DNA from: Patescibacteria group bacterium
GTDB lineage: Bacteria; Patescibacteriota; UBA1384; XYA2-FULL-43-10
Direction of reading: 5' to 3'
Assembly: GCA_041674405.1 (NCBI GenBank)
Contig: JBAYVT010000001.1
Span: 1,012-65,011 of the forward strand
DNA: 64,000 nt
Within the stretch, counting starts at the first letter, position 1, and each line of letters opens with the position of its first letter. Position numbers and translations under genes: made by a program. This document shows, in pieces, positions 5,138-37,263 of the stretch. The notes under the pieces were generated by a model. That model was given only the letters and a program-made list of their open reading frames with translations. It searched no databases and was not told the origin of the DNA.

Positions 5138-5166
5138 TTGACACACGATCAATATTGTGTTATTAT
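5138..5166 (+). promoter_or_regulatory. Sigma70-like promoter TTGACA-N17-TATTAT
   Basis: Consensus -35 TTGACA (5138-5143), 17-nt spacer, -10 TATTAT (5161-5166). It sits directly in front of the high-GC island at 5170-5690. Confidence 0.45.
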
Positions 5167-5209
5167 TCGCCAGTGTCGGACTACTACTTCGCAGCCATGG
5201 AGGATTATC

Positions 5210-5635
5210 TTGAAACCCGAAGAAGTGAAAGCATTGGCAAGTTGTTTTGTCAATCGGTGTGAGCAAGCGTTCGTCGACAATCCGCAGGGCCCGCAACTGC
5301 GCGTGTTCGAAAGAGGTGGACGATGGTATGCGGGTGTGATCCTGCGTATTTGCCGAGATATCGACACCTCAGTTGTGCTTGTAGTGCTAAGTGAGCATTT
5401 GCAGCTTGAGGTAGTCGAGGAAATCAAGCGAATGCGCCCCGGGGTCGATGTCGTGACGATCGCAAGATCTGTGAGAGTCAGAGTGTCATCCTTTGTTGCG
5501 CGACTGGAATCCGGCGTATTGCTTTGCTTGACCGGAAGGCAAGCCGGTTTCCTCCAGTCGCTTCTCGTCACACTACCCGTGAGCGCAATTCCCCTCGCAC
5601 TCAGCCGCACAACCGAATCCGCAGCCGGCAACTAG
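5210..5635 (+). CDS. Hypothetical protein in high-GC island A (alternative reading: structured ncRNA)
   Basis: GGAGGA SD (5199-5204) is followed 5 nt later by a TTG start in frame with a 141-codon ORF ending at TAG 5633-5635. GC is about 57% against about 35% for the flanks. The antisense strand is also open, as expected at high GC. No family recognised. Confidence 0.35.
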   Translation: MKPEEVKALASCFVNRCEQAFVDNPQGPQLRVFERGGRWYAGVILRICRDIDTSVVLVVLSEHLQLEVVEEIKRMRPGVDVVTIARSVRVRVSSFVARLESGVLLCLTGRQAGFLQSLLVTLPVSAIPLALSRTTESAAGN

Positions 5636-5690
5636 CCGGTACTGAAGTACTGGGAGAGCACGGCTTCGCCGTGCTCCTTTCAGTTATTAG
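5634..5690 (+). terminator. Multi-hairpin terminator incl. 9-bp stem with UUCG tetraloop (gagcacggc-ttcg-gccgtgctc)
   Basis: Hairpins at 5634-5651 and 5656-5677 are followed by a T-rich tail ctttcagttattagatcgttttt. Confidence 0.45.
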
Positions 5691-5704
5691 ATCGTTTTTA
5701 AGAG

Positions 5705-5917
5705 TTACATATGCAAAAGTGTAAAAACCTTGTAAATCAGAAGCGCGGGCCAAACGATTGCTTTCAGAAAGCCTAAGACCCCCCACCAAAACGTATCTGC
5801 TTGCTGAATAAAATACACTGCAGCGCCGATGAATGCCAGTCCGTAAGCACCACCAAATATTCCATTGGCGCTTCCCTTGCCTTTACTAACCTTCAATTCA
5901 CATTTTTCTTTTGCCAT
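5705..5917 (-). CDS. Small membrane protein (70 aa, 2 TM)
   Basis: aagggagaa SD before the ATG. Translation MAKEKCELKVSKGKG...GLAFIGAAVYFIQQADTFWWGVLGFLKAIVWPALLIYKVF. Confidence 0.45.
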   Translation of the reverse strand: MAKEKCELKVSKGKGSANGIFGGAYGLAFIGAAVYFIQQADTFWWGVLGFLKAIVWPALLIYKVFTLLHM

Positions 5918-5977
5918 AATTCTCCCTTATTAATTATATTTAGAATATACATCACAAGTATTGGTGACGAAAATATT

Positions 5978-6160
5978 TTATTCTCCAATATCATCTTTCA
6001 ATTTCCTTATAGACATTGCTCGGATATCTTTGAGAGCAATCACTCGCCCATCTCCAAGGAGAACCTTACCGCTTTTATGGTCAGCAAATTTGCCTGTGGT
6101 AACCTCACCGGTCCGATACTTTATCCAGATAGTAGTACCTTTAGGGTAACTTGTATGCAT
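5978..6160 (-). CDS. Hypothetical small protein (about 60 aa)
   Basis: Internal ATG at 6160 overlaps the stop of the upstream gene by 4 nt (ATGA coupling). Translation MHTSYPKGTTIWIKYRTGEVTTGKFADHKSGKVLLGDGRVIALKDIRAMSIRKLKDDIGE. Confidence 0.3.
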   Translation of the reverse strand: MHTSYPKGTTIWIKYRTGEVTTGKFADHKSGKVLLGDGRVIALKDIRAMSIRKLKDDIGE

Positions 6161-6162
6161 AT

Positions 6163-6873
6163 TTAGGGCTTTTTTGGAGTTATTGTTGCCAAACAATCTT
6201 TTTGGTCAAATGTTCCTATTCCAATCTGGCGTACAGACATGCCTTGATCGTCATTTACATCATGGATTAGGCCCTCATTGGTTGCAATTGTGCGCAAGCT
6301 AGAAACAAGAATGATTGCATTTTCACGTTGCTCTGGTGGTATTTCAGCAGTAAGACCATTTTTGGCTTCGTAATAATCACTCATCCAGTAATACTCTGGT
6401 TTCGGCGATTCAGAGGGTTGTGTAACCCGAAAAAACAACACGAGATCAGGATTTATTTTTTCATCACCAAGCGCTTCGAGGTTAACTTGATATCCAGTCT
6501 CACTTTGCCTTACTTGTCCATCGTTATGAGGTGTTTCGGGTATAGTGACCTCTTTACCCAAGAAACCGCTTACATCTCCACCCCATCTTTTTTTACGCGC
6601 TTTATAAGCAAAATCTGAAAAAGCCATTGAATGAGCAATCAGTTCTGCCATTCTATTATCGGAAGATCTGATATTCTCGGGCAATGATTCGTAAAGGTCC
6701 GGATCTTCAAAATACTCCGCCACCATGGGGTTTATTATTATTCCTTGAGCTTTCAAAAAATCACAAATCTTTAATACCTGTTCTTCTGCTTTTTTCTCAC
6801 GATCAATAGGAGGCAATTCTGCGCTATTGAAAGGAGATTGTTCAACACTACCGTAGTCATTTGCTTTTCTCAT
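6163..6873 (-). CDS. Hypothetical protein (236 aa, soluble)
   Basis: Long ORF with AT-rich codon usage typical of the host. No family recognised. Confidence 0.5.
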   Translation of the reverse strand: MRKANDYGSVEQSPFNSAELPPIDREKKAEEQVLKICDFLKAQGIIINPMVAEYFEDPDLYESLPENIRSSDNRMAELIAHSMAFSDFAYKARKKRWGGDVSGFLGKEVTIPETPHNDGQVRQSETGYQVNLEALGDEKINPDLVLFFRVTQPSESPKPEYYWMSDYYEAKNGLTAEIPPEQRENAIILVSSLRTIATNEGLIHDVNDDQGMSVRQIGIGTFDQKDCLATITPKKP

Positions 6874-7018
6874 ACTATCCTTTTATTTGGCTATTAAGAC
6901 CATGCCGGTAATAATTAAACATATTGCTAAAAATTCCGTTCGCCAGGAATAAAAAAGTAATTCAGTTCACATTTATATTCTCATAATATGAAAAATAATT
7001 GAACTGGAATGCCTGAAT

Positions 7019-8830
7019 TTAGTTCTTTTTTGCCCGGTAGCGTTCTGCAGCGGTGAGGAGTTTTTTGCGCATACGCAGGGATTGTGGGGTTACCTCAAGT
7101 AGTTCATCGTCTTCAAGAAAATCGATGCACTGCTCGAGAGACATTTTTGTATGAGGAGTTAAGATGGTTGCAATATCCGAATTCGAAGCGCGTACATTGG
7201 ATAATTTCTTTTCCTTGGTAACGTTGATATCGAGGTCGTCTTCGCGGGAATTTAGCCCCACGATCATCCCAGCGTAAACATCTGTTTGAGGTGGGATAAA
7301 GGTGATTCCTCTCTGCTGGGCGATGTTTAAGCCATAAGTTACGGCTTTGCCAGATTCAAAGGCGATCATTACGCCGTTTCGAAGTTTTGGAATTGCTGCC
7401 CCAACTTTTTCATAGCGCAAAAAGATTGAGTTGATCACTGCTGTTCCTTTAGAAAGTGTCACCAAAGTATTGCGAAGGCCGAGTGTGCCGCGGGTTGATA
7501 TCTCAAAAACCAGCCTTGTTGTGGAGTCTGAGTTTTGTGATTGGTGAATTAATATTCCTCGACGTCTGCTGATTTCGCCAATTACCGAACTTGCAAATTT
7601 ATCATCGACGTCGATGGTGAGTTCTTCGATTGGCTCGCAGGTTATTCCGTCAATTTCTCTGGTGATAACTTGGGGTTTGCCGACTTGAAGCTCGAATCCT
7701 TCACGGCGAAGGTTTTCGATAAACACCGATAGGTGGAGTTCACCTCTGCCGGAAATAATATAATTCCCGTCTGCAGCGACATGGAATCGCATCGCAATAT
7801 TTGTCTCGAGCTCTTTCATTATTCGCTCGAGTAATTGCCGCAAGGTTACAAACTTGCCTTCGCGTCCGGCGAAAGGTGAAGTATTGGCGTACATCGAAAT
7901 TGAAAGCGTAGGCTCCTCGATTGCCATTGAAGGAACGATGTCGATCTCTCCGGGGTCGCAGATTGTGTCGCCGATTGAAACTTTCGAAAGGCCGGCAATT
8001 GAAACAATATCGCCAGATAAGGCTTCCTTGACCTCAATTTTTCTTAGTCCTGCATTTTGAAATATTTTTTCCGCTTTTCCGCTCTGGACAGCTCCCTCTT
8101 CGTTCGCTAAAACAACATTTTGGCTGGTGGAAATTTTCCCCCGGATTATTTTACCGATTGCGTATTTGCCCAAGAAATTATCGTAGCTGAGGGCAGAGAC
8201 CAACATTTGAAACGGCTTGTCGTCGTCTTTTTGCGGCTCTGGTATATACTTAACTATTCCATCCATCACTGGGGTAAGATCTGCGGGAGAGGTAAAGTCT
8301 GCCGGCATTTTTTCCCAAGATTTTCCTTCCCGCCCGATTGCATAATAGATCGGAAAATCGAGCTCGCTATCATCTTTTGCAAGTTCTAGAAATAGGTCAT
8401 AAGTTTTATTCAAGGTATTTTCGATATCAGCGTTATTTTTATCGATCTTATTTACGACAACGATAATTTTAAGGCCAATTTCGAGCGCCTTTTTAAGGAC
8501 AAACTTGGTCTGGGGCATTGGCCCCTCTTTGGCGTCAATCACCAAGATAGCGCCGTCTGCCATATTCAGCGTTCGCTCGACCTCTCCGGCGAAATCCGCG
8601 TGTCCCGGAGTGTCAATAATATTTATTTTCACTCCCTTGTATTCGATAGAAGTATTTTTGGCAAGAATCGTAATTCCCCGCTCGCGCTCCTGATCGTTCG
8701 AATCTAAAATCAGAGTTTCCGACATTAAGGCCTCATTCTCACGGAATGTTTTTGACTGCTTCAAAAATCCATCAACAAGGGTGGTTTTGCCATGGTCAAC
8801 GTGAGCGATTATTGCGACATTTTTTATCAT
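7019..8830 (-). CDS. typA: Translational GTPase TypA/BipA
   Basis: MIKNVAIIAHVDHGKTTLVD G1 motif, DTPGHADF, NKID. EF-G-like domain order with the BipA-specific C-terminal domain. Start placed at MIKN (internal to the longer listed ORF). Confidence 0.9.
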   Translation of the reverse strand: MIKNVAIIAHVDHGKTTLVDGFLKQSKTFRENEALMSETLILDSNDQERERGITILAKNTSIEYKGVKINIIDTPGHADFAGEVERTLNMADGAILVIDAKEGPMPQTKFVLKKALEIGLKIIVVVNKIDKNNADIENTLNKTYDLFLELAKDDSELDFPIYYAIGREGKSWEKMPADFTSPADLTPVMDGIVKYIPEPQKDDDKPFQMLVSALSYDNFLGKYAIGKIIRGKISTSQNVVLANEEGAVQSGKAEKIFQNAGLRKIEVKEALSGDIVSIAGLSKVSIGDTICDPGEIDIVPSMAIEEPTLSISMYANTSPFAGREGKFVTLRQLLERIMKELETNIAMRFHVAADGNYIISGRGELHLSVFIENLRREGFELQVGKPQVITREIDGITCEPIEELTIDVDDKFASSVIGEISRRRGILIHQSQNSDSTTRLVFEISTRGTLGLRNTLVTLSKGTAVINSIFLRYEKVGAAIPKLRNGVMIAFESGKAVTYGLNIAQQRGITFIPPQTDVYAGMIVGLNSREDDLDINVTKEKKLSNVRASNSDIATILTPHTKMSLEQCIDFLEDDELLEVTPQSLRMRKKLLTAAERYRAKKN

Positions 8831-8887
8831 ATCAATCCTCTTGCCCTGAGCGAGGTCGAAGGGCAACATTTCTTAATTTCATATTAT

Positions 8888-10144: not shown

Positions 10145-10407
10145 ACAATTTCCTACGCGAGATTTCGCGTTAATATTAAAACTTCGAATAGCTCTTTAAG
10201 AACGTCGAAGTTTTAATTCGGAAATCTAAAGAACGATTTCGAGACTTCGAAAGTATATCATTAATTAGTATTTAAGTCAAGGATTGTATCTCGATGAATT
10301 AAGAGGTTGTAAGCTTGATGATTGCTCAAGTTGTACCAGTATGAATTGAAAATAATCAATTTCTAAAGGTTAAAACCAATGCGGGCCAATTAAAACACAA
10401 ATAAAAA

Positions 10408-10445
10408 GACCAGAGGAATTAAATAAATTAATTGCTCTGGTCTTG
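10408..10445 (-). terminator. Rho-independent terminator of high-GC gene B
   Basis: gaccagag...ctctggtc 8-bp stem followed on the minus strand by a TTTTTATTTGTGTTTT run. A second 8-bp hairpin (gctccgac/gtcggagc) lies at 10447-10469. Confidence 0.5.
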
Positions 10446-10501
10446 CTCCGACAAACGTCGTCGGAGCACCAGTACCACCTCCAGTTCACCAAGACTTGAC
10501 G

Positions 10502-10993
10502 CTACAGCGCCGGCGGCTGCGGCATGCCGCAGCCAATCATTACGATACCCACGCTGCCTGCGGGTGCAGCCTCCATGATGCGCTCGACGGTGCACTGCGG
10601 GCAGGTGCATGTGGACTTGTCCCTCGTCCAGACCTTCCAACCTGCCGCGACTCCGTAGTGCCGCTCGCCGAAAAGGCCGAAGACAGCCTTCATCTCGTAG
10701 TCGTAGATGTCCGTGATGAGCTTCACCCGCGCTGCATGCTCGAGGCACTGGCGCAGGAAGTCCTTGTTGTCGTCTGTGTCCTGTTCCTCGATCTCATCGA
10801 GTTTCTTCAAGATGCCCTCGGCCTCCGGCCGGAAGCTCTCGATGAGGCTGTACAGGCGCTTCAGCTCCTCGGGCAGGTCCCCGATCACATTGGCGTTCTC
10901 CGGGATCGGACCCTCGGGCTCGATTAGCTCAACTACTCCCATGCCAGCCAGTACGTCCTGAATCTTTAACATCGACATCACCTTTATTTTCAC
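10502..10993 (-). CDS. Hypothetical protein, high-GC island B (163 aa, acidic, CxCPxC motif)
   Basis: GC about 60% ORF with coherent protein-like composition. C-terminal KSTCTCPQC. The first about 12 codons are AT-rich. Confidence 0.5.
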   Translation of the reverse strand: MKIKVMSMLKIQDVLAGMGVVELIEPEGPIPENANVIGDLPEELKRLYSLIESFRPEAEGILKKLDEIEEQDTDDNKDFLRQCLEHAARVKLITDIYDYEMKAVFGLFGERHYGVAAGWKVWTRDKSTCTCPQCTVERIMEAAPAGSVGIVMIGCGMPQPPAL

Positions 10994-11027
10994 TGCCGAT
11001 CGTTATCAGTCAGTGCCCCCTTGCCAC

Positions 11028-11077
11028 CTTTCGGGAGCAAATAATCGGAAATAATTCCAAACATTTGCTCCCGAAAG
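11028..11077. promoter_or_regulatory. 15-bp perfect inverted repeat with 20-nt loop (ctttcgggagcaaat ... atttgctcccgaaag), 35 nt upstream of gene B start
   Basis: Read directly. Located in the C-B intergenic region on the minus-strand transcript. Could be a terminator/attenuator or an operator. Confidence 0.35.
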
Positions 11078-11244
11078 ATTGAATAATATTAACATATTAA
11101 TTCTGATCTGTCAACGATCGTGAATTGTAGTGTTTCTTGCCTTCGGTTGGCATAATCACACAATATACTTAAATTACAACCCTCTTAATCAAAGAACGAA
11201 CCGGCACGCCGATTCGCTCAATGATCATCCCCTCTTTTCCAGTT

Positions 11245-11880
11245 CTAGTGGCTCCTGCCCCCTCGGCCTCGGTCCTTTGCGCCGCGCGTATCCTTGCCCT
11301 GAAGAGCAAGGCGCTTCTGCTTGTCGGCGCGCCTCTTCTTTTGCTCGTCGGTCGGCGATTTCTTCTTGCCCAAGATTCGCTCCTGGGTCGGCGATTTCCT
11401 CGCTTTCTCCTTGGCAAGAAGCGCGCGAACTTCGCGCTTAACCCAGCCATCAAGGCGGTCCAGGTGGACATCCCGTTCCTCCACGCAGACGACCTGGAAG
11501 AGAAGCGGATCGGTCTTCTGGATGGAAACGCATACCTGCGTGTAGCATCCGTTCCGGTGGTAGATGACGCGGCCGGCGGTGATGAAGCACACCGACTGCG
11601 GCTCCTTGTCCGGGTTGGTTGCGGTTGTGCTCGAGGCAATTCCCTCCTTCTGGTCGTCCAGGTGGATGCGGTCCGTATTTGTGGGTACGCTCACATCCAT
11701 CAGGTTGACGAAGAGTCTCGCCTTGGGGATCCGCGCCATAGCTTGAGGAATCCGATACATCCCGTTGCCCTGGTCGGCAAGCTTGACGAAGAGCCGCTGC
11801 CCGACTACCAAGCAGGCAAGCCTGTGATTGTGGATAATGGCGGCATTGCCATTGTTCCGTGAAACCGCGAAATACAGCAT
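11245..11880 (-). CDS. Hypothetical protein, high-GC island C (about 211 aa) with highly basic Lys/Arg-rich C-terminal tail
   Basis: AGGAGG SD 6 nt before the ATG at 11880. Globular N-terminal region, then a tail KEKARKSPTQERILGKKKSPTDEQKKRRADKQKRLALQGKDTRGAKDRGRGGRSH. GC about 58%. Confidence 0.5.
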   Translation of the reverse strand: MLYFAVSRNNGNAAIIHNHRLACLVVGQRLFVKLADQGNGMYRIPQAMARIPKARLFVNLMDVSVPTNTDRIHLDDQKEGIASSTTATNPDKEPQSVCFITAGRVIYHRNGCYTQVCVSIQKTDPLLFQVVCVEERDVHLDRLDGWVKREVRALLAKEKARKSPTQERILGKKKSPTDEQKKRRADKQKRLALQGKDTRGAKDRGRGGRSH

Positions 11881-12066
11881 TTTTTCCTCCTGAGTATTGG
11901 TGTGATTGCGGCGATATTGTTTTAACATAAATTGTTTAGTTTGTAAACCTTTAAAAAGGATGTAAACACAAAAACACCGCCGGTGTTCAGGGCGGTGTTT
12001 TAATATAGAATCAGGCTAACTATTTCGATGTATAGGAAATTCCCTTCGACTTCGCTCAGGGCGAGA

Positions 12067-14715
12067 CTATTTGGAAGTATAGCTGATTCCGGATTTCGCG
12101 GCGATTACGGCTTGTGCAGCGGCAAGTCTGGCGATTGGGACGCGATATGGTGAGCAGGAAACATAATTCATCTTTACTTTGTGGCAGAAGTGAATTGTGG
12201 TAGGATCTCCGCCGTGCTCTCCACAGATGCCGACTTTCAGATTCTTCTTTGATGATCGGCCTTTCTCGATCCCAATCTCAACCATTTTGCCGACACCGTC
12301 TTGGTCGAGAGTTTGGAATGGATCAGCGTCAAAGATGCCAATTTCCTTGTAAACTTTGATGAATTTGCCGGCGTCGTCGCGGGAGAAGCCCATTGTCATT
12401 TGGGTTAAGTCGTTGGTTCCGAAGGAGAAGAATTCAGCTTTCTCAGCGATCTCGTCTGCAGTTACAGCGGCTCGTGGAACTTCGATCATTGTGCCAACCT
12501 TATAGTCGATCTTGGTTTTGTATTCGGACATGACTCGGGTAGCAGTTTCATCAACAACTTTCTTCTGGTTCTCAAACTCCTTGACATTGCCTACAAGCGG
12601 GATCATGATTTCCGGAACGATCTTAAATCCATCTTTCGCAAGTTCGCAAGCGGCAGAGATGATAGCTTCAGCCTGCATCTCGGTGATTTCCGGATATGTA
12701 ATTCCGAGGCGGCAACCGCGGTGGCCAAGCATCGGATTGAATTCGTGCAAATCTTCAGAAACCTGTTTGATCTTGGATTCAGAAATACCGATTTTTTTCG
12801 AAAGAGCTTTGACATCCTCGTTTGTCTTTGGCAAAAACTCATGCAAAGGCGGGTCCAAAAGACGGATGGTTACCGGAAAACCCTTCATTTCGCGGAAGAG
12901 GCCAAGGAAATCTTCTTTCTGGAAAGGTAAGAGCTTTTTCAAGGCTTTTCTTCTTTCGTCTTCGGTATCGGCAAGAATCATCTGTTGCATGAATGGAAGG
13001 CGCTTCTCGTCGAAAAACATGTGTTCGGTGCGGCAGAGGCCGATGCCTTCGGCGCCAAATTCTCGAGCGGTCTTGGCATCAGTCGGCGTGTCTGCATTGG
13101 TGCGAACTCCGAGGACGCGGGTTTTGTCAGCCCAGCCCATGAGAGTCTTGAATTCGGCTTTGATCTCCGGCTCGATTGTTTTGACCTCGCCAAGGATGAC
13201 TTGGCCGGTAGAGCCGTTTAGGGCGATCCATTCCCCTGCTTTGACTGTATATGAACCAACAGTAAATTTCTTCGCTTTTTCATCAATCTTTATATCACCG
13301 CAGCCGGCAACGCATGTTTTGCCCATTCCGCGGGCAACAACTGCGGCGTGGCTGGTCATACCGCCGCGGCAGGTCAAGATTCCCTGTGCTGCGTACATGC
13401 CGTGGATATCATCCGGTGAGGTCTCAGCGCGGACCAGGACGACCTTTTCGTTGTCGCCAAGTTCGGCAGCGGTATCTGCGTCGAAAACGACCTTACCGAC
13501 AGCGGCACCGGGAGAGGCCGGAAGTCCCATTGCGATAACCTCAAGCGTAGCTTTCGGATCGATGACAGGGTGCAAAAGCTGGTCGATAGTTTCCGGTTCT
13601 AGCCGCATTACAGCTTCGTCTTCTCCGATCATTTTCTCTTTGACCAAATCAACAGCGATCTTGACAGCAGCTTGGGCAGTTCTTTTGCCGGTTCTGGTCT
13701 GTAACATGTAGAGCTTGTTTCTTTCGATGGTAAACTCAAAATCCTGAACATCTTTATAATGTTTTTCAAGTTTGTCTGTGATTGCCTTGAGCTCTGTAAA
13801 TGCTTTTGGCATCTCCTTCTTGAGATCGGCTATCGGGTGCGGCGTGCGTACGCCGGCTACAACATCTTCGCCCTGTGCATTGGTAAGGAATTCACCGTAG
13901 AACTCCTTATCACCAGTGGAAGGATTTCTAGTGAATCCGACGCCGGTGGCGCAGTCATCACCCATGTTGCCGAAGACCATTGCCTGGACATTTACGGCTG
14001 TTCCCAAATTGTGAGGAATGTTATTCAAGTTTCTGTAAGTATTGGCTCGGTCATTGCCCCAGCTCTCGAATACCGCTTTGTAGGCCATTTCAAGTTGTTT
14101 AGCCGGATCCTCTGGAAATTCTTTGCCGGTCTCTTTCTTGACCAATTTTTTATATCCGTCGATCACATCTAGAAGATCGTCGGCGGTGAGGTCGGTATCA
14201 AGTTTAGCACCGGCTTTGTCTTTGACAAGATCTAGAACATGTTCAAATTTGTCTTTGTCGATAGCAAGTACGACATTTCCGAACATCTGGATAAATCTTC
14301 GGTAGGCGTCGTGAGCAAATCGGGAATTCCCGGTAAGCTCGGCCATGCCTTTGACAGTTTCATCGTTCAAGCCAAGGTTTAGGATCGTATCCATCATACC
14401 CGGCATCGAGAACTTGGCGCCGGAACGGACGGAGAGAAGGAGCGGATTTTTGGCGTCGCCGAATTTTTTTCCGGTTGACTTTTCAACTTTTGCAAGCATT
14501 GGTGCAAGCTCGGAGTCAAAGTCCTTCGGCAGTTTCTTGCCGTTGTTGTAATAGTAATTGCACATTTCGGTCGTGATAGTAAAACCTGATGGGACCGGAA
14601 CGCCTAAATTCGACATTTCGGCAAGGTTTGCGCCTTTACCGCCCAAGAGAGCTTTCATTTCCGCTTTGCCTTCGGCTTTTCCGTCACCGAAATAATAGAT
14701 GTACTTCGTACTCAT
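12067..14715 (-). CDS. ppdK: Pyruvate, phosphate dikinase
   Basis: 882 aa. N-terminal ATP-grasp (GGKGANLAEM). Central phospho-His domain (GGMTSHAAVVARGMG). C-terminal PEP-utilising TIM barrel (CGEHGGDP). Confidence 0.9.
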   Translation of the reverse strand: MSTKYIYYFGDGKAEGKAEMKALLGGKGANLAEMSNLGVPVPSGFTITTEMCNYYYNNGKKLPKDFDSELAPMLAKVEKSTGKKFGDAKNPLLLSVRSGAKFSMPGMMDTILNLGLNDETVKGMAELTGNSRFAHDAYRRFIQMFGNVVLAIDKDKFEHVLDLVKDKAGAKLDTDLTADDLLDVIDGYKKLVKKETGKEFPEDPAKQLEMAYKAVFESWGNDRANTYRNLNNIPHNLGTAVNVQAMVFGNMGDDCATGVGFTRNPSTGDKEFYGEFLTNAQGEDVVAGVRTPHPIADLKKEMPKAFTELKAITDKLEKHYKDVQDFEFTIERNKLYMLQTRTGKRTAQAAVKIAVDLVKEKMIGEDEAVMRLEPETIDQLLHPVIDPKATLEVIAMGLPASPGAAVGKVVFDADTAAELGDNEKVVLVRAETSPDDIHGMYAAQGILTCRGGMTSHAAVVARGMGKTCVAGCGDIKIDEKAKKFTVGSYTVKAGEWIALNGSTGQVILGEVKTIEPEIKAEFKTLMGWADKTRVLGVRTNADTPTDAKTAREFGAEGIGLCRTEHMFFDEKRLPFMQQMILADTEDERRKALKKLLPFQKEDFLGLFREMKGFPVTIRLLDPPLHEFLPKTNEDVKALSKKIGISESKIKQVSEDLHEFNPMLGHRGCRLGITYPEITEMQAEAIISAACELAKDGFKIVPEIMIPLVGNVKEFENQKKVVDETATRVMSEYKTKIDYKVGTMIEVPRAAVTADEIAEKAEFFSFGTNDLTQMTMGFSRDDAGKFIKVYKEIGIFDADPFQTLDQDGVGKMVEIGIEKGRSSKKNLKVGICGEHGGDPTTIHFCHKVKMNYVSCSPYRVPIARLAAAQAVIAAKSGISYTSK

Positions 14716-14893
14716 AGTAGATTCCTATTTAATAATGACGAAATTATATTAGCAAAAAATTATTTTAAGATCAAATATCCTTTATTTATAACATTCCCAA
14801 ATATTTGAGATATCTGATCAAATGATAGACAAATCCGGTAAAATATGTTAAAAAAGATTGCGCACATCATCCAGCACCCAACAGGAGAAAACC

Positions 14894-15679
14894 ATGATCC
14901 CGATGTACCTGAAGGATATTCCGATCGGTCCACATGTGGGTAAGGTGGTTGAAGAGTTCGATTCCGACACAGAGACACGCTACAGCATCCTGTCGGGCGT
15001 GTTCAACAACCAGGGATATATCCTCTCCCGCGAGGATGTAGAGGAAGAGTTCGGCAAGAACTCGTGCCTCCTTGACTTCATTTCACACGTTCATCTGCGC
15101 GAGCAGATGGCTGGATTAACCTTGTGGCTCAAGACTTTCGTCGCAGAAGTGAGAGGCGAAGGCGCTGCTCGTGTCATGTTTCCCGAATTTGAAGAGCACA
15201 ACGCACGAATACACTTGTTGCGAAGCGAGTGGATTCGCCACGAGGCCATTCGGGAGGCTACCAACGACGCGCTGAAAGCCCTGGCGGAATGCATGCGATG
15301 GTTCAACATTCAGATGGTGGCGGGATGGATCCAGCGCACCCTGACGGATGTGCTGGAACAGATGGAAATCTGCATGGATTTCGATGCATTCGAAGTGCCG
15401 CGGCAGTGTTCGTTGCTCGACGATCTGGCGTATCGTATGGGCAGAAGCGAGATGCGGTCGTCATGCGCCCGCGCCTACAACAGCCTGGCTGTCGCCTGTG
15501 AGTCGAGCCCGATCTTCAAAGACGTGGTGCTTCTTCCTCCCGAAAAGATTGTTCGTCTCGGACAGTGGCGCATGGGGCTGATCCAAGATCCGGGTCTTGT
15601 CCCAGAAGAGAAGCCCGAGGAGGACGAGGACGATTACGCCCTGAACGAATCCGGCATATTCGTGCCGAAGAAGAAGTGA
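14894..15679 (+). CDS. Hypothetical protein, high-GC island D (about 261 aa, acidic C-terminus)
   Basis: AGGAGA SD 5 nt before the ATG at 14894 (MIPMYLKD...). GC about 57%. Ends EEKPEEDEDDYALNESGIFVPKKK. Confidence 0.5.
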   Translation: MIPMYLKDIPIGPHVGKVVEEFDSDTETRYSILSGVFNNQGYILSREDVEEEFGKNSCLLDFISHVHLREQMAGLTLWLKTFVAEVRGEGAARVMFPEFEEHNARIHLLRSEWIRHEAIREATNDALKALAECMRWFNIQMVAGWIQRTLTDVLEQMEICMDFDAFEVPRQCSLLDDLAYRMGRSEMRSSCARAYNSLAVACESSPIFKDVVLLPPEKIVRLGQWRMGLIQDPGLVPEEKPEEDEDDYALNESGIFVPKKK

Positions 15680-15734
15680 TAGGAGGTGGAGAGCCGTGAG
15701 CGGACCTGTGTGGCCCGCTCTTGGCGTTTTAAAA

Positions 15735-16208
15735 CTAATTAATTATAACCCCGCCGATGAAGTTCTGTGAGAATACGACTTCATCCTTATATTCAATATA
15801 TTCGTTGTCTGCAAAGTCTTCGATATTTCCAGTAAGTGCGCTAAAGTATTCAAAATTGCCATCATGAAAATGCTGGGGCCCACGGAAAGGTGATTCCGGA
15901 TCCATCGCAAGAAGAGCCGTTTTTAAAAATTCGATCGTCTTTTTCGTGAGTTCTTTGTCGCCGTGGTGATCAAAAGCCATGCCACCGGCGTATGCCATTG
16001 CCCAAACAGGCTTGCCTTCGAAATAAACGATCTCCTGCCCAGGGGCGAAATAGTGTCCTGTATATGAATCGTGAAACAGCCAATCCCCTTCTTTGTATTC
16101 AATCTCGTCAAAACCTTGGCGCTGCGGTGAGACTTCATTGCCATCACCAGCGTAGCCGTTTTTATTGGCTTCGTATAAAAATTTTTTTAATTCATCTAAA
16201 TTAATCAT
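15735..16208 (-). CDS. Hypothetical conserved protein (157 aa)
   Basis: Soluble. Host-like AT-rich codon usage. No confident family assignment. Confidence 0.5.
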   Translation of the reverse strand: MINLDELKKFLYEANKNGYAGDGNEVSPQRQGFDEIEYKEGDWLFHDSYTGHYFAPGQEIVYFEGKPVWAMAYAGGMAFDHHGDKELTKKTIEFLKTALLAMDPESPFRGPQHFHDGNFEYFSALTGNIEDFADNEYIEYKDEVVFSQNFIGGVIIN

Positions 16209-16271
16209 GGCTGTTATTTGATCATTTATGTCGTCAAAAACTGAACGATCGTCGAAATTTCGACGATCAAT

Positions 16272-19114: not shown

Positions 19115-19540
19115 ATGGCTGAGACGTACTTGTTTCGTGGCCGTCCGCATTGCCGGATTTCTGGTCTGGGTGTAGCGCACCTTAAGGCAAATGCCGGCAA
19201 TACACTGGCGTACGTAAGGCTGGGCATCGTCCTCGAAGACGGACTGACGCAGGAGGGCGTCAGTGCTACAGGGCGGTACTACGACGGTGAAGGGAAAACA
19301 AGGGAACGCGGTCATGCAGACAATGCTAGCGTCATTACAGTTCTCGCGATGCTAAATGACACCTGCAGGAATCTCAGCCGCGAAGCGAATGTCAAACATG
19401 CCCATTTCAACTTCGACGGTAAGGAAGTTGAGGTCGGCATTGAGTTCCATGCGCGCAGAAATGTCGGTCAGGCATTTTTGTCCAGCGTAGCGGATCTCTT
19501 CGAGGAGTCGTTTGCTGCCGTCAGTGCGGCGGTAGCCTAG
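19115..19540 (+). CDS. Hypothetical protein, high-GC island E (about 141 aa)
   Basis: GGAGGGGG SD upstream of ATG 19115 (MAETYLFRGRPH...). GC about 58%. Confidence 0.4.
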   Translation: MAETYLFRGRPHCRISGLGVAHLKANAGNTLAYVRLGIVLEDGLTQEGVSATGRYYDGEGKTRERGHADNASVITVLAMLNDTCRNLSREANVKHAHFNFDGKEVEVGIEFHARRNVGQAFLSSVADLFEESFAAVSAAVA

Positions 19541-19578
19541 ACGTGTGTGGGGGGAGAATCAGGCGAGTGCTTTCGGGC

Positions 19579-19614
19579 GCTCGTCTGTTGGTTTTAAGAT
19601 ATTATTTTGTAAAC
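19579..19614 (+). terminator. Rho-independent terminator after island E gene
   Basis: 11-bp stem (with two G-U pairs) caggcgagtgc-tttcgg-gcgctcgtctg followed by ttggtttt. Confidence 0.45.
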
Positions 19615-19703: not shown

Positions 19704-20066
19704 TCAGCTCTCCTGGTCGAGCTCGAGGTTCTCGACCAGGGCCTGGAAGAGCATATCTCCAGGTGTCTGGGGACCCACATCTTTGCTGGTTTCGTAGAAG
19801 AAGCTATTGCCATCTTCCAGGGAAAGCTCCAGGTCAAGAACTCGTCGAAATTCCCCGTCACCATCGAGGTCAAGAATCTCGTACAAAGTGGTGATGAGGT
19901 CGGAGAGCTCTGATATATCGCAGAGCCGCTCCGGCATGACGAAACGCGAAGCCTGGAGTTGTGCCCGAATCTTGCTGACGAGCGACCGATTACACCATGG
20001 CGACTCCTTAATGAACTCGTCAATGGCCATGTTGATCTTCACAGAGAGCGGTCTCTCTGGGATCAT
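19704..20066 (-). CDS. Hypothetical acidic protein, high-GC island F (120 aa)
   Basis: Convergent with island E gene. GC about 55%. Asp/Glu/Leu-rich. Confidence 0.4.
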   Translation of the reverse strand: MIPERPLSVKINMAIDEFIKESPWCNRSLVSKIRAQLQASRFVMPERLCDISELSDLITTLYEILDLDGDGEFRRVLDLELSLEDGNSFFYETSKDVGPQTPGDMLFQALVENLELDQES

Positions 20067-23320: not shown

Positions 23321-23321
23321 G

Positions 23322-25591: not shown

Positions 25592-25733
25592 ATTTTTTCC
25601 TTGATAAATTCAGTTACATTCTATTCTAAATAGCTACTAAATTCAAGATGAGTATCATTTGTGGCGCAGAGATTAATGACAGCACAATTTACAACTTATA
25701 GCCATATTCCAGCTATTGTGCTATATTTTTTTC

Positions 25734-26450: not shown

Positions 26451-26451
26451 C

Positions 26452-27219: not shown

Positions 27220-27238
27220 ATATGATGTTTATATTTGA

Positions 27239-27323
27239 TGGTGCCGCAGCCCGGACTCGAACCGGGATGGATTTCTCCACACGATTTTGAGTCGTGCGTG
27301 TCTACCAATTCCACCACAGCGGC
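27239..27323 (-). tRNA. tRNA-Leu (anticodon CAA), CCA encoded
   Basis: Hand-folded cloverleaf: long variable arm (type II), anticodon loop cuCAAaa, T-loop ggttcgagtcc. One acceptor-stem mismatch. 3' CCA present in the DNA. Confidence 0.7.
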
Positions 27324-27412
27324 GCAGTTAATTATCACTCGTTAATTCTAGCAAAAAATCGGTTTAAACTCAATTGTAAATTATTGTATAATGGTTCGGG
27401 AGGGATTTTTTA

Positions 27413-30580: not shown

Positions 30581-30587
30581 AGGCACA

Positions 30588-31145: not shown

Positions 31146-31159
31146 AAACTGGAGCATAA

Positions 31160-32239: not shown

Positions 32240-32258
32240 TCGAATAAAATAAGAGTAC

Positions 32259-33299: not shown

Positions 33300-34021
33300 A
33301 TGAAATTATGCCAAAATGCTGGAATTGCAATACTAAACCGCACTTATTTTGTCCTGGTTGTGGGCATGGCATTACGTTAAAACACCTCGGATACGCAATC
33401 GACGAGATGGAAATTGCCAATAATGTTACTTTGGGCATAGATATAGGATGCTCACTTCTCTCCTGGAATTTCTTCAATTTTGATACTATTCAGACTCATC
33501 ACGGCAGAACAAACCCGACAATGGTCGGATACAAAATGGCAAACCCAAAGCGAGTTGCCATTGCTTACATGGGTGATGGCGGTGGTTATGCGATAGGTTT
33601 ACAATCCTTACTGCATGCAGCTTTTCGAAACGATCCAATTACTGTTATTTTGGTTAATAACGAAAACTATGCTATGACCGGCGGCCAAGTTGCGCCAACT
33701 ACTGAAACTGGAATAGTAACAGCGACCACGCCAAAGGGTAAACCTGTATCATTTGGTCCCGGCTTTCATGGTCCCGAACTAGTCCGCTGTATCGCGAATG
33801 ATAAAGCATTTGTCGCCCGTGTTTCTGTTTCCCAGCCGGAAATTATTAAGTTGACACTTAAAAAAGCGATTGAAAATCAAATTAAAAACAAATTATTTTC
33901 TTTTGTTGAGGTTCTTTCCATCTGTCCGACAAACTGGAAAACCAATGCAAAGGAATCGTTTAATCGACTTTTGGATATGGAAAAATACTACCATGTCGAA
34001 GAAATCAAACCGAATGAATAA
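33296..34021 (+). CDS. 2-oxoacid:ferredoxin oxidoreductase beta subunit (TPP-binding)
   Basis: CPGCGHG, TPP-binding GDGG...NN motif. Start overlaps the alpha stop (ATGA). Confidence 0.8.
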   Translation: MNEIMPKCWNCNTKPHLFCPGCGHGITLKHLGYAIDEMEIANNVTLGIDIGCSLLSWNFFNFDTIQTHHGRTNPTMVGYKMANPKRVAIAYMGDGGGYAIGLQSLLHAAFRNDPITVILVNNENYAMTGGQVAPTTETGIVTATTPKGKPVSFGPGFHGPELVRCIANDKAFVARVSVSQPEIIKLTLKKAIENQIKNKLFSFVEVLSICPTNWKTNAKESFNRLLDMEKYYHVEEIKPNE

Positions 34022-34832
34022 TAATTCGATAAAAATTATCCTCGCAGGTGAAGGTGGCCAAGGGGTTCAAACAATTGCTAAGGCATTGTTTAATGCTGCA
34101 ATTTCTGCTAAATACAATGTTTCATACATTCCCTCTTTTGGTGTCGAACAGCGCGGTACGCCATCTGTGGCTTATATTACGCTGTCTCACGGCCAAATAC
34201 GTTATCCCCGTTTCGAATTTGCTGATGTGGCGCTTGTCATGGGAGAACGAGCAATGGATCGTGTAGCAGGGGTTATCAATCCGAATACGAAGCTGATTTT
34301 CGATACCTCAAACATGGACACAAAAAATTTAAAAAAGCCTTGGGTTAAACGGCTTGGCGTTCCGGCTACCAGATATGCTTTAGAAAAATTTTCACCGAAA
34401 TCATATAACGTATTAATGTATGGTGCTTTGTGCAAAGAGCTTGGTTTTGACCCAAAGATATCGTGGGATTCCATACATAGCATTTTGAAAGATAAATTTA
34501 AAACCAAGGAAATTGCAGAAATGAATCACGATGCGTTTTCTTTCGGTTATGAAATTGTCTTTGAACACAAGAATTTTTCCAAGCCAATCTATGAGACCAA
34601 AAAGACAGATAATATTTTTAGAAATGCCGAAAAGATCGCCACGATCTCGCCCGAAAGATGCAAGGGTTGTGGAATCTGCATAGAAAAATGTCCAGTTAAG
34701 GCATTATCTTTTGGTGAAGATTTGGGTGTGTTCTCCACTCCGGTTCCAGATATTAACCTTGAAAAATGTATCGCTTGTGGCAATTGTCGACGCTACTGTC
34801 CCGACGGGGCGATTAAAGTTGATAAAAAATAA
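34014..34832 (+). CDS. 2-oxoacid:ferredoxin oxidoreductase gamma subunit fused to 2x[4Fe-4S] ferredoxin (delta)
   Basis: Gamma-like ILAGEGGQGVQTIAKA N-terminus. C-terminal CKGCGICIEKCP and CIACGNCRRYCP clusters. Internal ATG chosen so the gene starts 8 nt before the beta stop. Confidence 0.7.
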   Translation: MNNNSIKIILAGEGGQGVQTIAKALFNAAISAKYNVSYIPSFGVEQRGTPSVAYITLSHGQIRYPRFEFADVALVMGERAMDRVAGVINPNTKLIFDTSNMDTKNLKKPWVKRLGVPATRYALEKFSPKSYNVLMYGALCKELGFDPKISWDSIHSILKDKFKTKEIAEMNHDAFSFGYEIVFEHKNFSKPIYETKKTDNIFRNAEKIATISPERCKGCGICIEKCPVKALSFGEDLGVFSTPVPDINLEKCIACGNCRRYCPDGAIKVDKK

Positions 34833-34839
34833 ATTTAAA

Positions 34840-34876
34840 ATAAAAAATCTGCCTGAATCAAGGGCGGTTTTTTATT
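34840..34876 (+). terminator. Weak rho-independent terminator after OFOR operon
   Basis: A-run, 5-bp stem cugcc/ggcgg (one G-U), then a T6 run. Confidence 0.35.
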
Positions 34877-35065
34877 TTGGTGGACCCGATCAGACATTAG
34901 AACCCGTTTCACTCTTTCGAAACCCTCGGTTCCGAATAACCTCCTATACGGGCAACTCTTGTTTCCCGACCCCTTCCGGAGCTCAAGCCTTCTCTTTGGG
35001 GAGAACAAATTAAAATAGAGTCGCAAGGACTCATTTTATTCTGGTGGACCCGATCAGGCTTGAAC
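34869..35065. repeat. 24-bp direct repeat (ttttatt[t/c]tggtggacccgatcag) duplicating the tRNA-Ala 3' end; att-like
   Basis: Copies at 34869-34892 and 35042-35065, 1 mismatch, bracketing about 150 bp. The second copy is the real tRNA-Ala 3' end plus 8 nt downstream. Confidence 0.5.
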
Positions 35066-35119
35066 TGACGACCTCCTCGATGCCATCGAGGCGCTCTAGC
35101 CAACTGAGCTACGGGCCCA
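35042..35119 (-). tRNA. tRNA-Ala (anticodon GGC), CCA encoded
   Basis: Hand-folded: acceptor gggcccg/cgggtcc, D-arm gctc-agttggcta-gagc, anticodon stem cctcg/cgagg with loop atGGCat, T-arm gtcag-ttcaagc-ctgat, discriminator A, CCA. Confidence 0.8.
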
Positions 35120-35244
35120 AAATTAACTAATAACTTAAAACTCAAAAGTTAAAACTGAACTAATTTACTATACCTAATTACCAATAATTAATCAATCCAG
35201 AGAGTATATTTCTGTGTTGATCAGTGCGAAAAATCAGAGAAATT

Positions 35245-35769
35245 TTATTCAATACAGCACTCAATTGCACGCTTTACGACCGCACCTATTTTACCAAGAA
35301 AACCTTTGCCTTTTTCTTCGTGTCGATTGATTTTGGCATCTTCAATTTTAGAAATATTTTTGGAATCGACAATTTTCATATTTAGCGCCCAAAATAATGA
35401 GTACAGATCAAAGGCTTTTTCATAAAATTCTTCTGCCTGTTTGCGGTTTTTTTTGAGATTGACCTTATTTCCCACTTCGATAAGCCGCATGGATGCTGCC
35501 AAAAGATGCTTTGAAAGGCACCAGATCTCGCCTTCGGGCTCTTTAACCAATTTTTGCATGACTTCTTTGCGTATCTCGCGAACTTCTTTTAGCATATCGA
35601 AATACTTTGTTTTGTTCGTTTTTTCAGCGGTAAAATAAAAATGTTCTTCGATTGAAACCAGGTTCATTACAGCAATTGAAAGATCTTCATCAAGAGAAAG
35701 GTCAAAACCTTTTTCTTTTGACTCTTCTACTTTTTTGATTAACTTTTGAATTTCTTTGTCATTTGCCAT
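35245..35769 (-). CDS. Hypothetical protein (174 aa, helical, Lys/Glu-rich)
   Basis: Host-like codon usage. No family recognised. Confidence 0.45.
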   Translation of the reverse strand: MANDKEIQKLIKKVEESKEKGFDLSLDEDLSIAVMNLVSIEEHFYFTAEKTNKTKYFDMLKEVREIRKEVMQKLVKEPEGEIWCLSKHLLAASMRLIEVGNKVNLKKNRKQAEEFYEKAFDLYSLFWALNMKIVDSKNISKIEDAKINRHEEKGKGFLGKIGAVVKRAIECCIE

Positions 35770-35773
35770 AAAT

Positions 35774-36343
35774 TTATTTTATTACTTTTATTTGAATAAG
35801 ACCGTGTATCAGCAAACTGCCGATGAGGATATATCCGACCGGCATAGCAATTTTCTGGAACGGAAAGTATGAATGATTGTGGTTTTTTCGTTTTAACGTA
35901 TTGTAATTTACCAGTGCTAGGACAAATAAAACGGACCCCGCTATCATTCCATCCAGCAATCGATCAATTCCCAAAAAAGTATTTTTAGGGTGTCCTATAA
36001 TACCGGTGTAATAAAGCGGTAAGATTGTAATAAAATATAGTGCCAAAGCGGCTAGAGGATAAATATATCTTGGCTCGACTTTTTTTGATTTCATCCAATT
36101 GAACATCCAGAAAGTAAGAGAAACCATGAGGGCGCCGATCCACATTCCGGTGATAAGATCATCGATCTTAAAATATCGAGAAAGCCCAAGCCCTGCAGCT
36201 ACAGCAACAGTACAAACTGGGCAAAAAGCGCTAACAGCAGTAGGAACTAGCGCAATTATCCCAGCAATTGCGATTGCATAAAATTTTGATGATCTTAGCT
36301 TCATAGGCAAAATAATCATATACAAAAATAATCCTGATTTCAA
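35774..36343 (-). CDS. Membrane protein (189 aa, about 5 TM, CPVC motif)
   Basis: Hydrophobic helices. FCPVCTVAVAAG. Confidence 0.45.
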   Translation of the reverse strand: MKSGLFLYMIILPMKLRSSKFYAIAIAGIIALVPTAVSAFCPVCTVAVAAGLGLSRYFKIDDLITGMWIGALMVSLTFWMFNWMKSKKVEPRYIYPLAALALYFITILPLYYTGIIGHPKNTFLGIDRLLDGMIAGSVLFVLALVNYNTLKRKNHNHSYFPFQKIAMPVGYILIGSLLIHGLIQIKVIK

Positions 36344-36475
36344 TAGAAATATCAGATTAAATTATAAATAAGCCGTCGAAATTGGTGTGTGATCTCTTGT
36401 ATATCATTCTAAAGAAATTTTTAGGTTAGCTTGTTATGATCAAAACACTAAAAATTGAATAAAGGGTCGAAATAA

Positions 36476-36510
36476 CAAAAGCAGGCCATTGGCCCGCTTT
36501 TGTTGTATTT
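36476..36510. other. Long A/T-flanked hairpin (aacaaaagcaggcc-attg-ggcccgcttttgtt)
   Basis: 14-bp stem with 1 mismatch and a 4-nt loop. Could be a bidirectional terminator or the end of an unannotated small RNA. Confidence 0.3.
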
Positions 36511-36623
36511 AGGCTTAAATTAGGGTAAATTATACTGGTATTTGGGCATTTAGTCCCGATGCGTGCCGATCGGGATTCCGAAAGTGTTGCTCTTCGGGAC
36601 TCAAAGCGTAATTCTAAATATTT

Positions 36624-36698
36624 GGTCGCTTAACTCAGCGGTAGAGTGCTTCGTTCACATCGAAGAAGTCACTGGTTCGAATCCAGTAGCGACCACCA
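36624..36698 (+). tRNA. tRNA-Val (anticodon CAC), CCA encoded
   Basis: Hand-folded: acceptor ggtcgct/agcgacc, anticodon stem cttcg/cgaag with loop ttCACat, T-arm actgg-ttcgaat-ccagt, discriminator A, CCA. Confidence 0.8.
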
Positions 36699-36805
36699 GA
36701 ACACTCTGATGAGGCCACCCCGACCAGTCGGGGTAATGCCCACCATTCGACTTTCGGTCTTCGCCTGAATCATATGATAAACCAAACTAATATTCAATCA
36801 AAAAA

Positions 36806-36836
36806 TGCCCGCCAGGGCCTTTTGTTTTTATAGACC
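36806..36836. terminator. Bidirectional terminator between tRNA-Val and island G gene
   Basis: aaaaaatgcccgccagggccttttgttttt: short GC stem flanked by A and T runs. Confidence 0.35.
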
Positions 36837-36897
36837 ATGAACGACCCCTTGTGGAGGTCGTCAGGCACTTCTTCTTGGAAGCCAAGAGATTCGGCTT

Positions 36898-37263
36898 CTA
36901 GGCGATATAGGGACACGGTTTGCCATTCTCATGGATTCCGTGGCAAAGACCACAGACGTACTTGTCTGCGAATACCTCTTGTGGGTGGGCTTTGGGCGGC
37001 TGGTCTTTGAGTGTATAGTGCTCGCCGTTGAAGTCCCAACACATACTAGGACACCACTGCCTAGCCCTCTCGGGAGTATTTCTTACAGCGTCGTCGCTGT
37101 CCAATGCAAACATGGCGGCGACAGCTCGTAGAACCTCCTCTCGGTTGGTCGGATCCTCGACATCCACCTCTGTCTGCGTTGGGAAGGTCCTCTCTGGAAA
37201 GTAGACCCTGATGCGGTGTTTTTCTTCCATGGTGGCGGGTGTCTCACTCCTTTCGTGCGACAC
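36898..37263 (-). CDS. Hypothetical protein, high-GC island G (121 aa, Cys-rich C-terminus)
   Basis: GC about 56%. CPSMCWDF...CGLCHGIHENGKPCPY. Located 200 nt downstream of tRNA-Val. Confidence 0.45.
   Translation of the reverse strand: MSHERSETPATMEEKHRIRVYFPERTFPTQTEVDVEDPTNREEVLRAVAAMFALDSDDAVRNTPERARQWCPSMCWDFNGEHYTLKDQPPKAHPQEVFADKYVCGLCHGIHENGKPCPYIA

Follow-up and report, generated by a model that had tools for sequence, protein, structure and literature searches.

GC-rich single-gene islands in an AT-rich Patescibacteria chromosome and their possible origin in a shared accessory gene pool

Why should an AT-rich bacterial chromosome carry, in the gaps between its housekeeping genes, short genes with the composition of a different kind of genome? 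The question is raised by a 64-kb stretch of contig JBAYVT010000001.1 from a bacterium labeled Patescibacteria (hereafter the window, meaning the whole of the stretch that was analyzed), in which seven short GC-rich loci, termed here islands A to G, stand out from their surroundings. An earlier note had explained them by acquisition, several times over and independently, from a high-GC donor, most obviously the host or a phage of that host. For A to D, the four islands with detectable relatives, such capture is not supported: the relatives that could be placed all lie in AT-rich contigs, none of them viral. We favor, with a probability of about one-half, a different reading, namely that the islands are rare accessory single-gene cassettes drawn from a GC-rich gene pool common to related AT-rich genomes of the Candidate Phyla Radiation (CPR).

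Composition and coding capacity of the seven islands

The window has an overall GC content of 41.1%. It carries the genes for TypA/BipA, a DEAD-box helicase, PPDK, and NusB, a WecG/glycosyltransferase operon, three tRNAs, and a series of small genes that would fit a ribosomal-protein cluster. Its PPDK has its best matches in metagenome-assembled genomes (MAGs) labeled Patescibacteria (77%) and Saccharibacteria (69%), and the chromosome carrying the islands is that of a Saccharibacteria-like member of the Patescibacteria. The 58 other genes of the window served as the core set, and island values were computed after refinement of the starts by Shine-Dalgarno spacing; the refined starts agree with independent gene calls. 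Windowed GC yields seven peaks at the positions reported earlier, and codon adaptation singles out the same loci. The islands have a GC content of 0.53-0.61 and a GC content at third codon positions (GC3) of 0.57-0.82, against a core GC3 of 0.364±0.050 (n = 58 genes; maximum 0.54, in PPDK), which amounts to a gap of 21-46 points and to z-scores of +4.2 to +9.2. Codon usage typical of the resident genome had been named as a possible outcome that would speak against foreignness; instead, the adaptation of the island codons to the core lies 4.4 to 9.3 standard deviations below that of the core genes themselves (z = -4.4 to -9.3). In total GC the islands exceed the core (~40%) by 13-20 points, and the reported excess of more than 20 points over a ~35% background is approached by B and C only, which reach ~20.

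The departure extends beyond GC. Pooled, the islands lie at a GC-normalized dinucleotide distance of 164 from the core, size-matched sets of core genes lying at 48±17 (maximum 120), and their products are enriched in Cys (3.4-fold) and Arg and depleted in Lys, Ile, and Asn. The elevated GC spans approximately the interval from transcription start to terminator, and the island promoters are AT-rich. As the ribosomal-protein genes of the window have ordinary GC3, the GC of the islands is not a matter of expression-linked codon bias. Islands A to G are discrete genes with a composition foreign to the core. An eighth GC-rich stretch (54185-54869; 0.50 GC) lies inside a 1434-amino-acid (aa) open reading frame (ORF) at 52900-57204 on the - strand; it is a different kind of feature and no discrete small-gene island. 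Among the core genes themselves, PPDK (12067-14715, - strand) is the GC-richest (GC 0.49, GC3 0.54), with an internal part, 12915-14034, above 0.51; its best relatives besides those in the two CPR MAGs come from Clostridia, Woesearchaeota, and others at ~60%, and it may itself be an older acquisition.

The islands are genuine protein-coding genes. All seven show a coding-type three-base periodicity (GC higher at first than at second codon positions and high at third; chi-square p from 0.006 to 5e-15), and a scan with Rfam found tRNAs only, with no curated RNA family at the islands or at the leader of B described below. AlphaFold models built from family alignments are confident for both B (predicted local distance difference test score, pLDDT, 87.3; predicted template modeling score, pTM, 0.76) and D (pLDDT 91.2, pTM 0.84). 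The former folds as a helical hairpin on a small sheet, followed by a helix that begins at a CPxC motif; in the latter, an all-alpha body is joined by an acidic linker to a C-terminal beta-hairpin with a conserved GIxxP motif. Searches with the two models returned no informative structural relative. Compared with synonymous shuffles, the mRNAs of A to D and G fold with z-scores of -1.1 to -1.8, that of F with -3.1, and that of E with -3.6, the controls ranging from +0.2 to -1.5.

The same seven proteins, unchanged in sequence and locus-tag order, are encoded on a 250,826-bp contig of another assembly, the NCBI MAG "Patescibacteria group bacterium" (WC080_00050 to WC080_00225), and an exact-protein look-up places the window also on a 395,669-bp metagenome contig of the European Nucleotide Archive. 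Because the islands are the same in two independent assemblies, chimeric assembly, a concern raised earlier, is excluded.

Each island would constitute a single-gene expression cassette, with a resident-type sigma-70 promoter, a strong Shine-Dalgarno sequence, an ORF, and an intrinsic terminator. The features predicted from the sequence, in window positions, are the following:

5138..5166, + strand: predicted A promoter, TTGACA-17-TATTAT, 11/12 matches, with TG
5210..5635, + strand: A gene, 141 aa, TTG start 6 nt after GGAGG; GC 0.55, GC3 0.57
5656..5676, + strand: predicted A terminator hairpin
10406..10444, - strand: predicted B terminator hairpin, followed by a T-run on the - strand
10502..10972, - strand: B gene, 156 aa; GC 0.61, GC3 0.82
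11028..11077, - strand: predicted B-family 5' leader hairpin, ~24 bp, with compensatory changes across three genomes
11086..11114, - strand: predicted B promoter, TTGACA-17-TAATAT, extended -10 TG
11194..11219, - strand: predicted C terminator hairpin
11245..11880, - strand: C gene, 211 aa, ATG start 6 nt after AGGAGG; GC 0.59, GC3 0.76
14894..15679, + strand: D gene, 261 aa, acidic (pI 4.9); GC 0.55, GC3 0.69
15698..15720, + strand: D terminator-like hairpin, GAGCGG...CCGCTC, then TTGGCGTTTT
19115..19540, + strand: E gene, 141 aa; GC 0.55, GC3 0.59
19560..19587, + strand: predicted E terminator hairpin
19704..20066, - strand: F gene, 120 aa, pI 4.2; GC 0.53, GC3 0.67
36898..37230, - strand: G gene, 110 aa, ORF reaches a GTG at 37263; GC 0.54, GC3 0.61
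37268..37296, - strand: G promoter-like site, TTGACG-17-TATAAA

A GGAGG-type Shine-Dalgarno sequence and a downstream hairpin accompany every island, in line with the earlier note except for the hairpin at 11028-11077, which had been taken for a terminator and is instead the conserved 5' leader of B. Promoter-like sites and terminator hairpins are predicted at A, B, C, E, and G, with D weaker. The consensus promoter had been thought peculiar to A; those of B and G are also near-consensus, and C, D, and E give weaker matches than these three. Island F, whose Shine-Dalgarno sequence is GGGAGGTG, follows WecG on the same strand at a distance of 77 nt and may be transcribed by read-through from it. 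The islands occupy intergenic gaps, as first described, around TypA, the DEAD-box helicase, PPDK, the WecG/glycosyltransferase operon, and tRNA-Val, and their neighbors also include genes for DUF5680 and DUF2207 proteins.

Their products are small, soluble, structured proteins, in which no signal peptide or membrane segment was seen by eye, and their individual traits agree with those first recorded. The A protein has a pI of 8.9 and 4 Cys. The B protein is acidic, and its family conserves the pattern GELPxEL...FWxExR...WxVW...CxCPxC, the CxCPxC being invariant. The C protein joins a globular N-terminal part to a Lys/Arg-rich basic tail (pI 10.1) that contains a 36-nt tandem duplication (KSPTQERILGKK / KSPTDEQKKRR; copies at 11340-11365 and 11376-11401). 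D and F are acidic, E is near neutral in charge, and G is acidic and Cys-rich, with 5 Cys in 110 aa in the pattern CxxxC...CxxC...C.

A repeat of ~26-30 nt, TCTYGCCCTGAGCGARGTCGAAGGG, occurs twice in inverted orientation (8834-8863 and 12042-12071), one copy between the helicase and TypA and the other just downstream of the PPDK stop, so that the pair encloses the helicase, B, and C (3.2 kb). In 100 shuffles there was no chance match, and none of the relatives' loci contains it. A REP-like element is one possibility, a remnant of an inversion or insertion another.

Families, genomic contexts, and the leader of B

Scans of the seven proteins with Pfam, NCBIfam, PHROGs, and PADLOC returned chance-level matches only (among the PADLOC defense models, nothing but a chance-level SIR2 fragment for A, E = 0.013), which bears out the earlier impression that they belong to no recognized family. 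The possibility that they are paralogs or remote relatives of one another was rejected, there being no similarity between them even at profile level. An exhaustive HMMER search of 1.84 billion protein representatives recovered ~30 full-length relatives for B (21-37% identity) and likewise ~30 for D (21-33%), three distant relatives of C, and a single distant relative of A (P0019, 34% identity); E, F, and G had none in this set. No functional name is attached to any A-D relative that was looked up. Word-indexed searches, with the concatenated islands against 5.8 billion protein clusters and with the two family profiles, were of no use, since 5-mers are no longer shared at the divergence of these families. 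On the viral side, no island relatives were found among GenBank phages (tblastn), among IMG/VR viral contigs scanned with sub-alignments of B and D (the full alignments being too divergent), or among the BFVD viral structure models by fold search.

Genomes related at the flanking genes were equally empty: more than 160 of their loci, centered on PPDK or helicase orthologs, were scanned by tblastn and HMMs without an island homolog coming up. The best PPDK relatives in species-representative genomes (77% and 69% identical) have no neighbors in common with the window. The helicase relatives from metagenomes are at most 68% identical over their full length (79% in one partial match); they keep the helicase-TypA arrangement and the glycosyltransferase operon, and no comparable "empty site" was found among them.

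The more informative evidence comes from the places where relatives of A to D do occur. DNA context was recovered for ~9 distinct genes among the roughly 65 relatives. Every one of them has housekeeping genes around it and an AT-rich background (0.30-0.48 GC) in which it is itself a local GC spike; no GC-rich or phage-like context was seen among these ~9. The relatives of D adjoin a P-type ATPase (L162) or GSP synthetase (L164), lie on a short contig (L163), stand between PBP and an HTH-RadA-RecJ-Mur/Fts cluster on an 80.8-kb contig (L168/L169), or stand between a peptidase and an ABC transporter in 15 contigs of one sample series (L173-L180), in the vicinity of HisRS, LexA, ClpB, NusA, and a WecG-GT4 operon. 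One D relative has the same junctions in at least five independent assemblies. A relative of B lies on a 46-kb contig with TsaE, TsaD, LytR, and an RRM protein (L165/L166), another on L167, and the recovered relatives of C and A are in L170 and L171/L172, respectively. The genomic neighbors thus listed vary between genomes.

In composition these relatives resemble the islands. The D relatives in L162, L163, L168/L169, and L173-L180 have a GC3 of 0.59-0.76 next to neighbors at 0.30-0.46, and the two B relatives one of 0.74-0.80 next to neighbors at 0.20-0.46; the GC of the C and A relatives is likewise elevated. Within the D family, the GC of the gene rises and falls with that of its background, staying above it by a fairly constant +0.10 to +0.18. 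Over the 28 D and 31 B relatives, the fraction of FYMINK residues (Phe, Tyr, Met, Ile, Asn, and Lys) is 0.22 and R/(R+K) is 0.50-0.67, both of these being 0.33 in the window core. In dinucleotide signature (distance delta*), the pooled A-D relatives lie at 35 from the window islands, which is under the islands' own split-half noise (57), and 22 other GC-rich loci lie at 60 to 180, all of them farther than the pooled relatives.

Further GC-rich genes are present near some of these relatives, with a GC3 of 0.56-0.74: unannotated genes of 186 aa (L173, 7633-8193, - strand) and 140 aa (L162, 3226-3648, - strand) near D relatives, a 316-aa gene with a sub-threshold radical SAM match (L171, 782-1732, - strand) near the A relative, and five unannotated genes in a row at a contig end (L170, 7638-10651) near the C relative. 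Heptamer tandem repeats (GGTTATA / GGTTATG) lie upstream of the 140-aa gene (L162, ~3650-3790).

In the B family, the likeness between genomes extends upstream of the gene. Three upstream regions share 74% nucleotide identity over ~160 nt, the proteins being ~32% identical. The shared part has an invariant TTGACA and a 17-nt spacer ending in an extended -10 (TGnTAnnnT) with invariant TG, then a ~24-bp leader hairpin and a GCAGTGAAA-like box before the Shine-Dalgarno sequence. RNAalifold keeps the leader stem in 3/3 sequences, with 9 of the 29 pairs changed on both sides. The hairpin thus has the marks of a new covarying cis element, and promoter, leader, and gene appear to behave as a unit. 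The leader is not common to the other cassettes, a possibility that was rejected when a covariance model, run over 384 kb of related sequence, matched only the three B copies. Nor is the promoter motif island-specific, since the extended -10 also precedes 12 of 35 core genes by a crude regular expression. With such promoters before about one-third of core genes, the cassettes are evidently fitted to the transcription apparatus of the resident genome, and a fresh arrival from an actinobacterial chromosome is difficult to square with that.

Origin of the islands

At least for A to D, the observations suggest rare, fast-diverging, lineage-restricted families that were GC-rich, with one dinucleotide signature, wherever they were seen. 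As their relatives are GC-rich in all the contexts recovered, the GC contrast appears to be inherited with the family rather than an un-ameliorated trace of recent capture; in the B family, the promoter and 5' leader hairpin of the gene would be inherited along with it. The earlier note had allowed that the island proteins might prove to be conserved core families that are GC-rich in all relatives. Their relatives are indeed GC-rich, but each family is tiny, patchily distributed, and found at a different place from one genome to the next, which marks the islands as accessory genes and not as conserved core. The cassettes may have spread between CPR genomes through DNA uptake and recombination, and GC-rich single-gene islets also occur elsewhere in related genomes. 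The reading of the islands as members of a CPR-internal pool agrees with the finding that most horizontal gene transfer inferred in Patescibacteria is from Patescibacteria to Patescibacteria (PMC12455944).

Several points weigh against a shared pool. No transfer event is demonstrated, the relatives being too distant for an empty site or for a comparison of gene and species trees. With only ~9 of ~65 relatives placed, a GC-rich "home" replicon could have been missed, and the taxonomy of the relatives' contigs is inferred from gene content and GC alone. One D relative (L164) has a GC3 of only 0.31, its total GC of 0.40 against a background of 0.30 being a rise of 10 points. The island signature lies at a delta* of 60 from one Planctomycetaceae MAG, about the noise floor, which makes an external donor type possible. 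The argument from families covers A to D only, as E, F, and G are without relatives. Finally, if such a pool is to stay GC-rich in AT-rich genomes, something must keep it so, whether selection, biased gene conversion, or a GC-rich vector as yet unseen.

The main rival to the shared pool, unlikely in our estimate though the best of the alternatives, is that the islands are vertically inherited, lineage-specific genes whose GC is actively maintained by selection on transcripts or codons or by GC-biased gene conversion. Selection could act, for example, on mRNA stability or through the avoidance of AU-rich cleavage sites. All relatives are GC-rich at a protein identity of ~30%, by which point synonymous sites have long since saturated, and a roughly constant offset from the background, as in the D family, is what active maintenance would give. 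The restriction of high GC to the transcribed unit, the promoters being AT-rich, points the same way, as does the 5'-terminal stem-loop of B, of a kind known to stabilize mRNAs, although its link to stability is here inferred. The seven mRNAs are slightly more stable than their synonymous shuffles, but for A to D and G the excess is weak and overlaps the controls. The ordinary GC3 of the ribosomal-protein genes also speaks against maintenance of this kind, and vertical descent sits poorly with tiny, patchy families whose neighbors are not conserved. To our knowledge, GC-biased gene conversion in bacteria has effects far smaller than a GC3 gap of 20-46 points, which likewise counts against this alternative.

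A case from two collinear, diverged relatives of the window bears on the same issue. Both L082 (5736-6737) and L084 (1933-2967) have, upstream of the helicase and in matching relative positions, a GC-rich gene for a FabH-like KAS III (GC 0.60, GC3 0.71-0.73), whereas their other orthologs have a GC3 of 0.30-0.48; the two copies are only 46% identical. Descent from a common ancestor with maintained GC would favor vertical inheritance. However, the pair may represent independent acquisitions, the L082 copy scoring no higher against the L084 copy than against unrelated FabH structures. Since the two copies resemble unrelated FabH proteins as much as they resemble each other, the evidence is weak, and as an "amelioration clock" the pair is suggestive only. 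In L082 and in another relative, L083, we also found genes 70-74% identical to a 253-aa gene of the window (692-1453, - strand) that encodes a heliorhodopsin (PF18761, by a precomputed match on the source contig).

We regard as quite unlikely the capture first proposed, in which each island was taken up separately and recently from the high-GC host of the CPR cell, or from a phage of that host, and has yet to be ameliorated. Codon, amino acid, and dinucleotide usage are like those of DNA that evolved in another type of genome, the nearest sampled GC-rich genome by signature being the Planctomycetaceae MAG already mentioned, and the lack of relatives of E, F, and G is as expected for an unsampled donor. 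The GC-rich islets of close relatives of the window encode FabH-like, prepilin/DUF1559-like, radical-SAM-like, and HD-domain proteins, which clearly resemble those of other phyla, and the islets share the island signature (delta* 52). On the other hand, with 1.84 billion representatives searched, the recovered contexts of the A-D relatives are all AT-rich chromosomes, and phage genomes, viral contigs, and viral structure models are without matches. The promoters are of resident type, that of the B family being conserved together with its gene across genomes, and the amino acid make-up of the families fits coding at ~50-60% GC and not actinobacterial extremes. Integrases, att-like repeats, and transposases are absent from every island.

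The sister islets lend themselves to a broader version of exchange with a partner, which we consider very unlikely: that the seven cassettes, their relatives elsewhere, and the annotated GC-rich genes of sister genomes form one class with a single dinucleotide signature, marking continuing traffic between this uncultured CPR lineage and one GC-rich partner, either the host or a replicon that shuttles through it. In L081, which holds the closest relative of the helicase, three such islets (6438-7157, - strand; 13550-14854, + strand; 14970-16058, + strand) encode a product with a prepilin N-terminus and a DUF1559-like part, a radical-SAM-like protein, and an HD-domain-like protein. The first of these assignments is our reading of the sequence, and we take the type to be one abundant in Planctomycetota. 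Pooled, the L081 islets match the window islands in signature at the distance given above, and it is the planctomycete-like signature, together with a sister islet for a DUF1559-type prepilin, that suggests a single partner. If this were true, the cassettes would be host-interaction genes kept in the "dialect" of the partner, and the islet signature could identify the host of an uncultured episymbiont.

GC-rich segments of AT-rich genomes are often RNA genes, and the islands share with these their sharp local GC peaks on an AT-rich background and one RNA element, the leader hairpin of B; they differ in that the peaks are protein-coding by periodicity, families, and folds. Although their GC-rich stretches yield long ORFs on both strands and E and F have some excess RNA structure, the notion that the islands are GC-rich reads chimerically joined into an AT-rich contig, or structured noncoding RNAs misread as ORFs, is effectively refuted by the retention of seven genes in order in two independent assemblies, the identical junctions of the D relative, the frame-specific GC periodicity, the conserved and confidently folded protein families, and an Rfam scan that shows nothing beyond tRNAs.

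Known counterparts and possible roles

A cassette of this form has a parallel in the phage moron of the Hendrix/Juhala concept, an extra gene of deviant composition that sits between two others and brings a promoter and a terminator of its own. Like morons, the islands are self-contained single-gene units in intergenic gaps, with a predicted promoter, Shine-Dalgarno sequence, ORF, and terminator; their composition is sharply off that of the flanks, mobility genes are lacking, and the products are mostly small proteins of unknown function. Unlike morons, they stand between chromosomal housekeeping genes, without PHROG matches or phage genes nearby, and family members retain the compositional offset from genome to genome.

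The islands also resemble the genomic islands described for Patescibacteria in being accessory and of atypical composition, and the transfers of those islands are mostly within Patescibacteria (PMC12455944). They differ in their size of ~0.4-0.8 kb each, in not being multi-gene, in the lack of an integrase, tRNA-linked repeats, and annotated homologs, and in being GC-richer than the core. Acquired or accessory bacterial genes are usually AT-richer than the core of the recipient. A classical integrative element finds no support, as no integrase, recombinase, or transposase is present in or beside any island and no island is flanked by direct repeats of the att type. G alone has a tRNA close by, tRNA-Val at a distance of ~200 nt on the opposite strand, and tRNA-linked integration was rejected for it in the absence of an att-like repeat of the tRNA end. 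The islands are compositionally atypical islets of the acquired type with a moron-like architecture, unusual in four ways: each is a single gene, its GC exceeds that of the core, mobility hallmarks are lacking, and the offset and signature are shared by family members from different genomes.

As to function, we tentatively suggest, as a possibility that is itself doubtful, roles of the conflict or interaction type, such as immunity, defense or counter-defense, or regulation by binding to partner proteins or nucleic acids. The suggestion comes from the fast divergence of the proteins beside a conserved leader, the patchy distribution, the strong and constitutive-looking expression signals, the Cys/Zn-type motifs, and the acidic or basic character of the products.

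A reduced, AT-rich CPR chromosome with many GC-richer single-gene cassettes is the reverse of the usual accessory trend, and it raises the question of what keeps a class of genes compositionally separate in tiny genomes; a hidden donor or replicon, biased gene conversion, and selection on transcripts are the candidates. The islands also yield two confidently folded families, B and D, that lack annotation and structural relatives, and, in the B family, what appears to be a new covarying 5' leader element. More generally, a compositional marker of this kind could help to link uncultured episymbionts to the partners with which they exchange genes.

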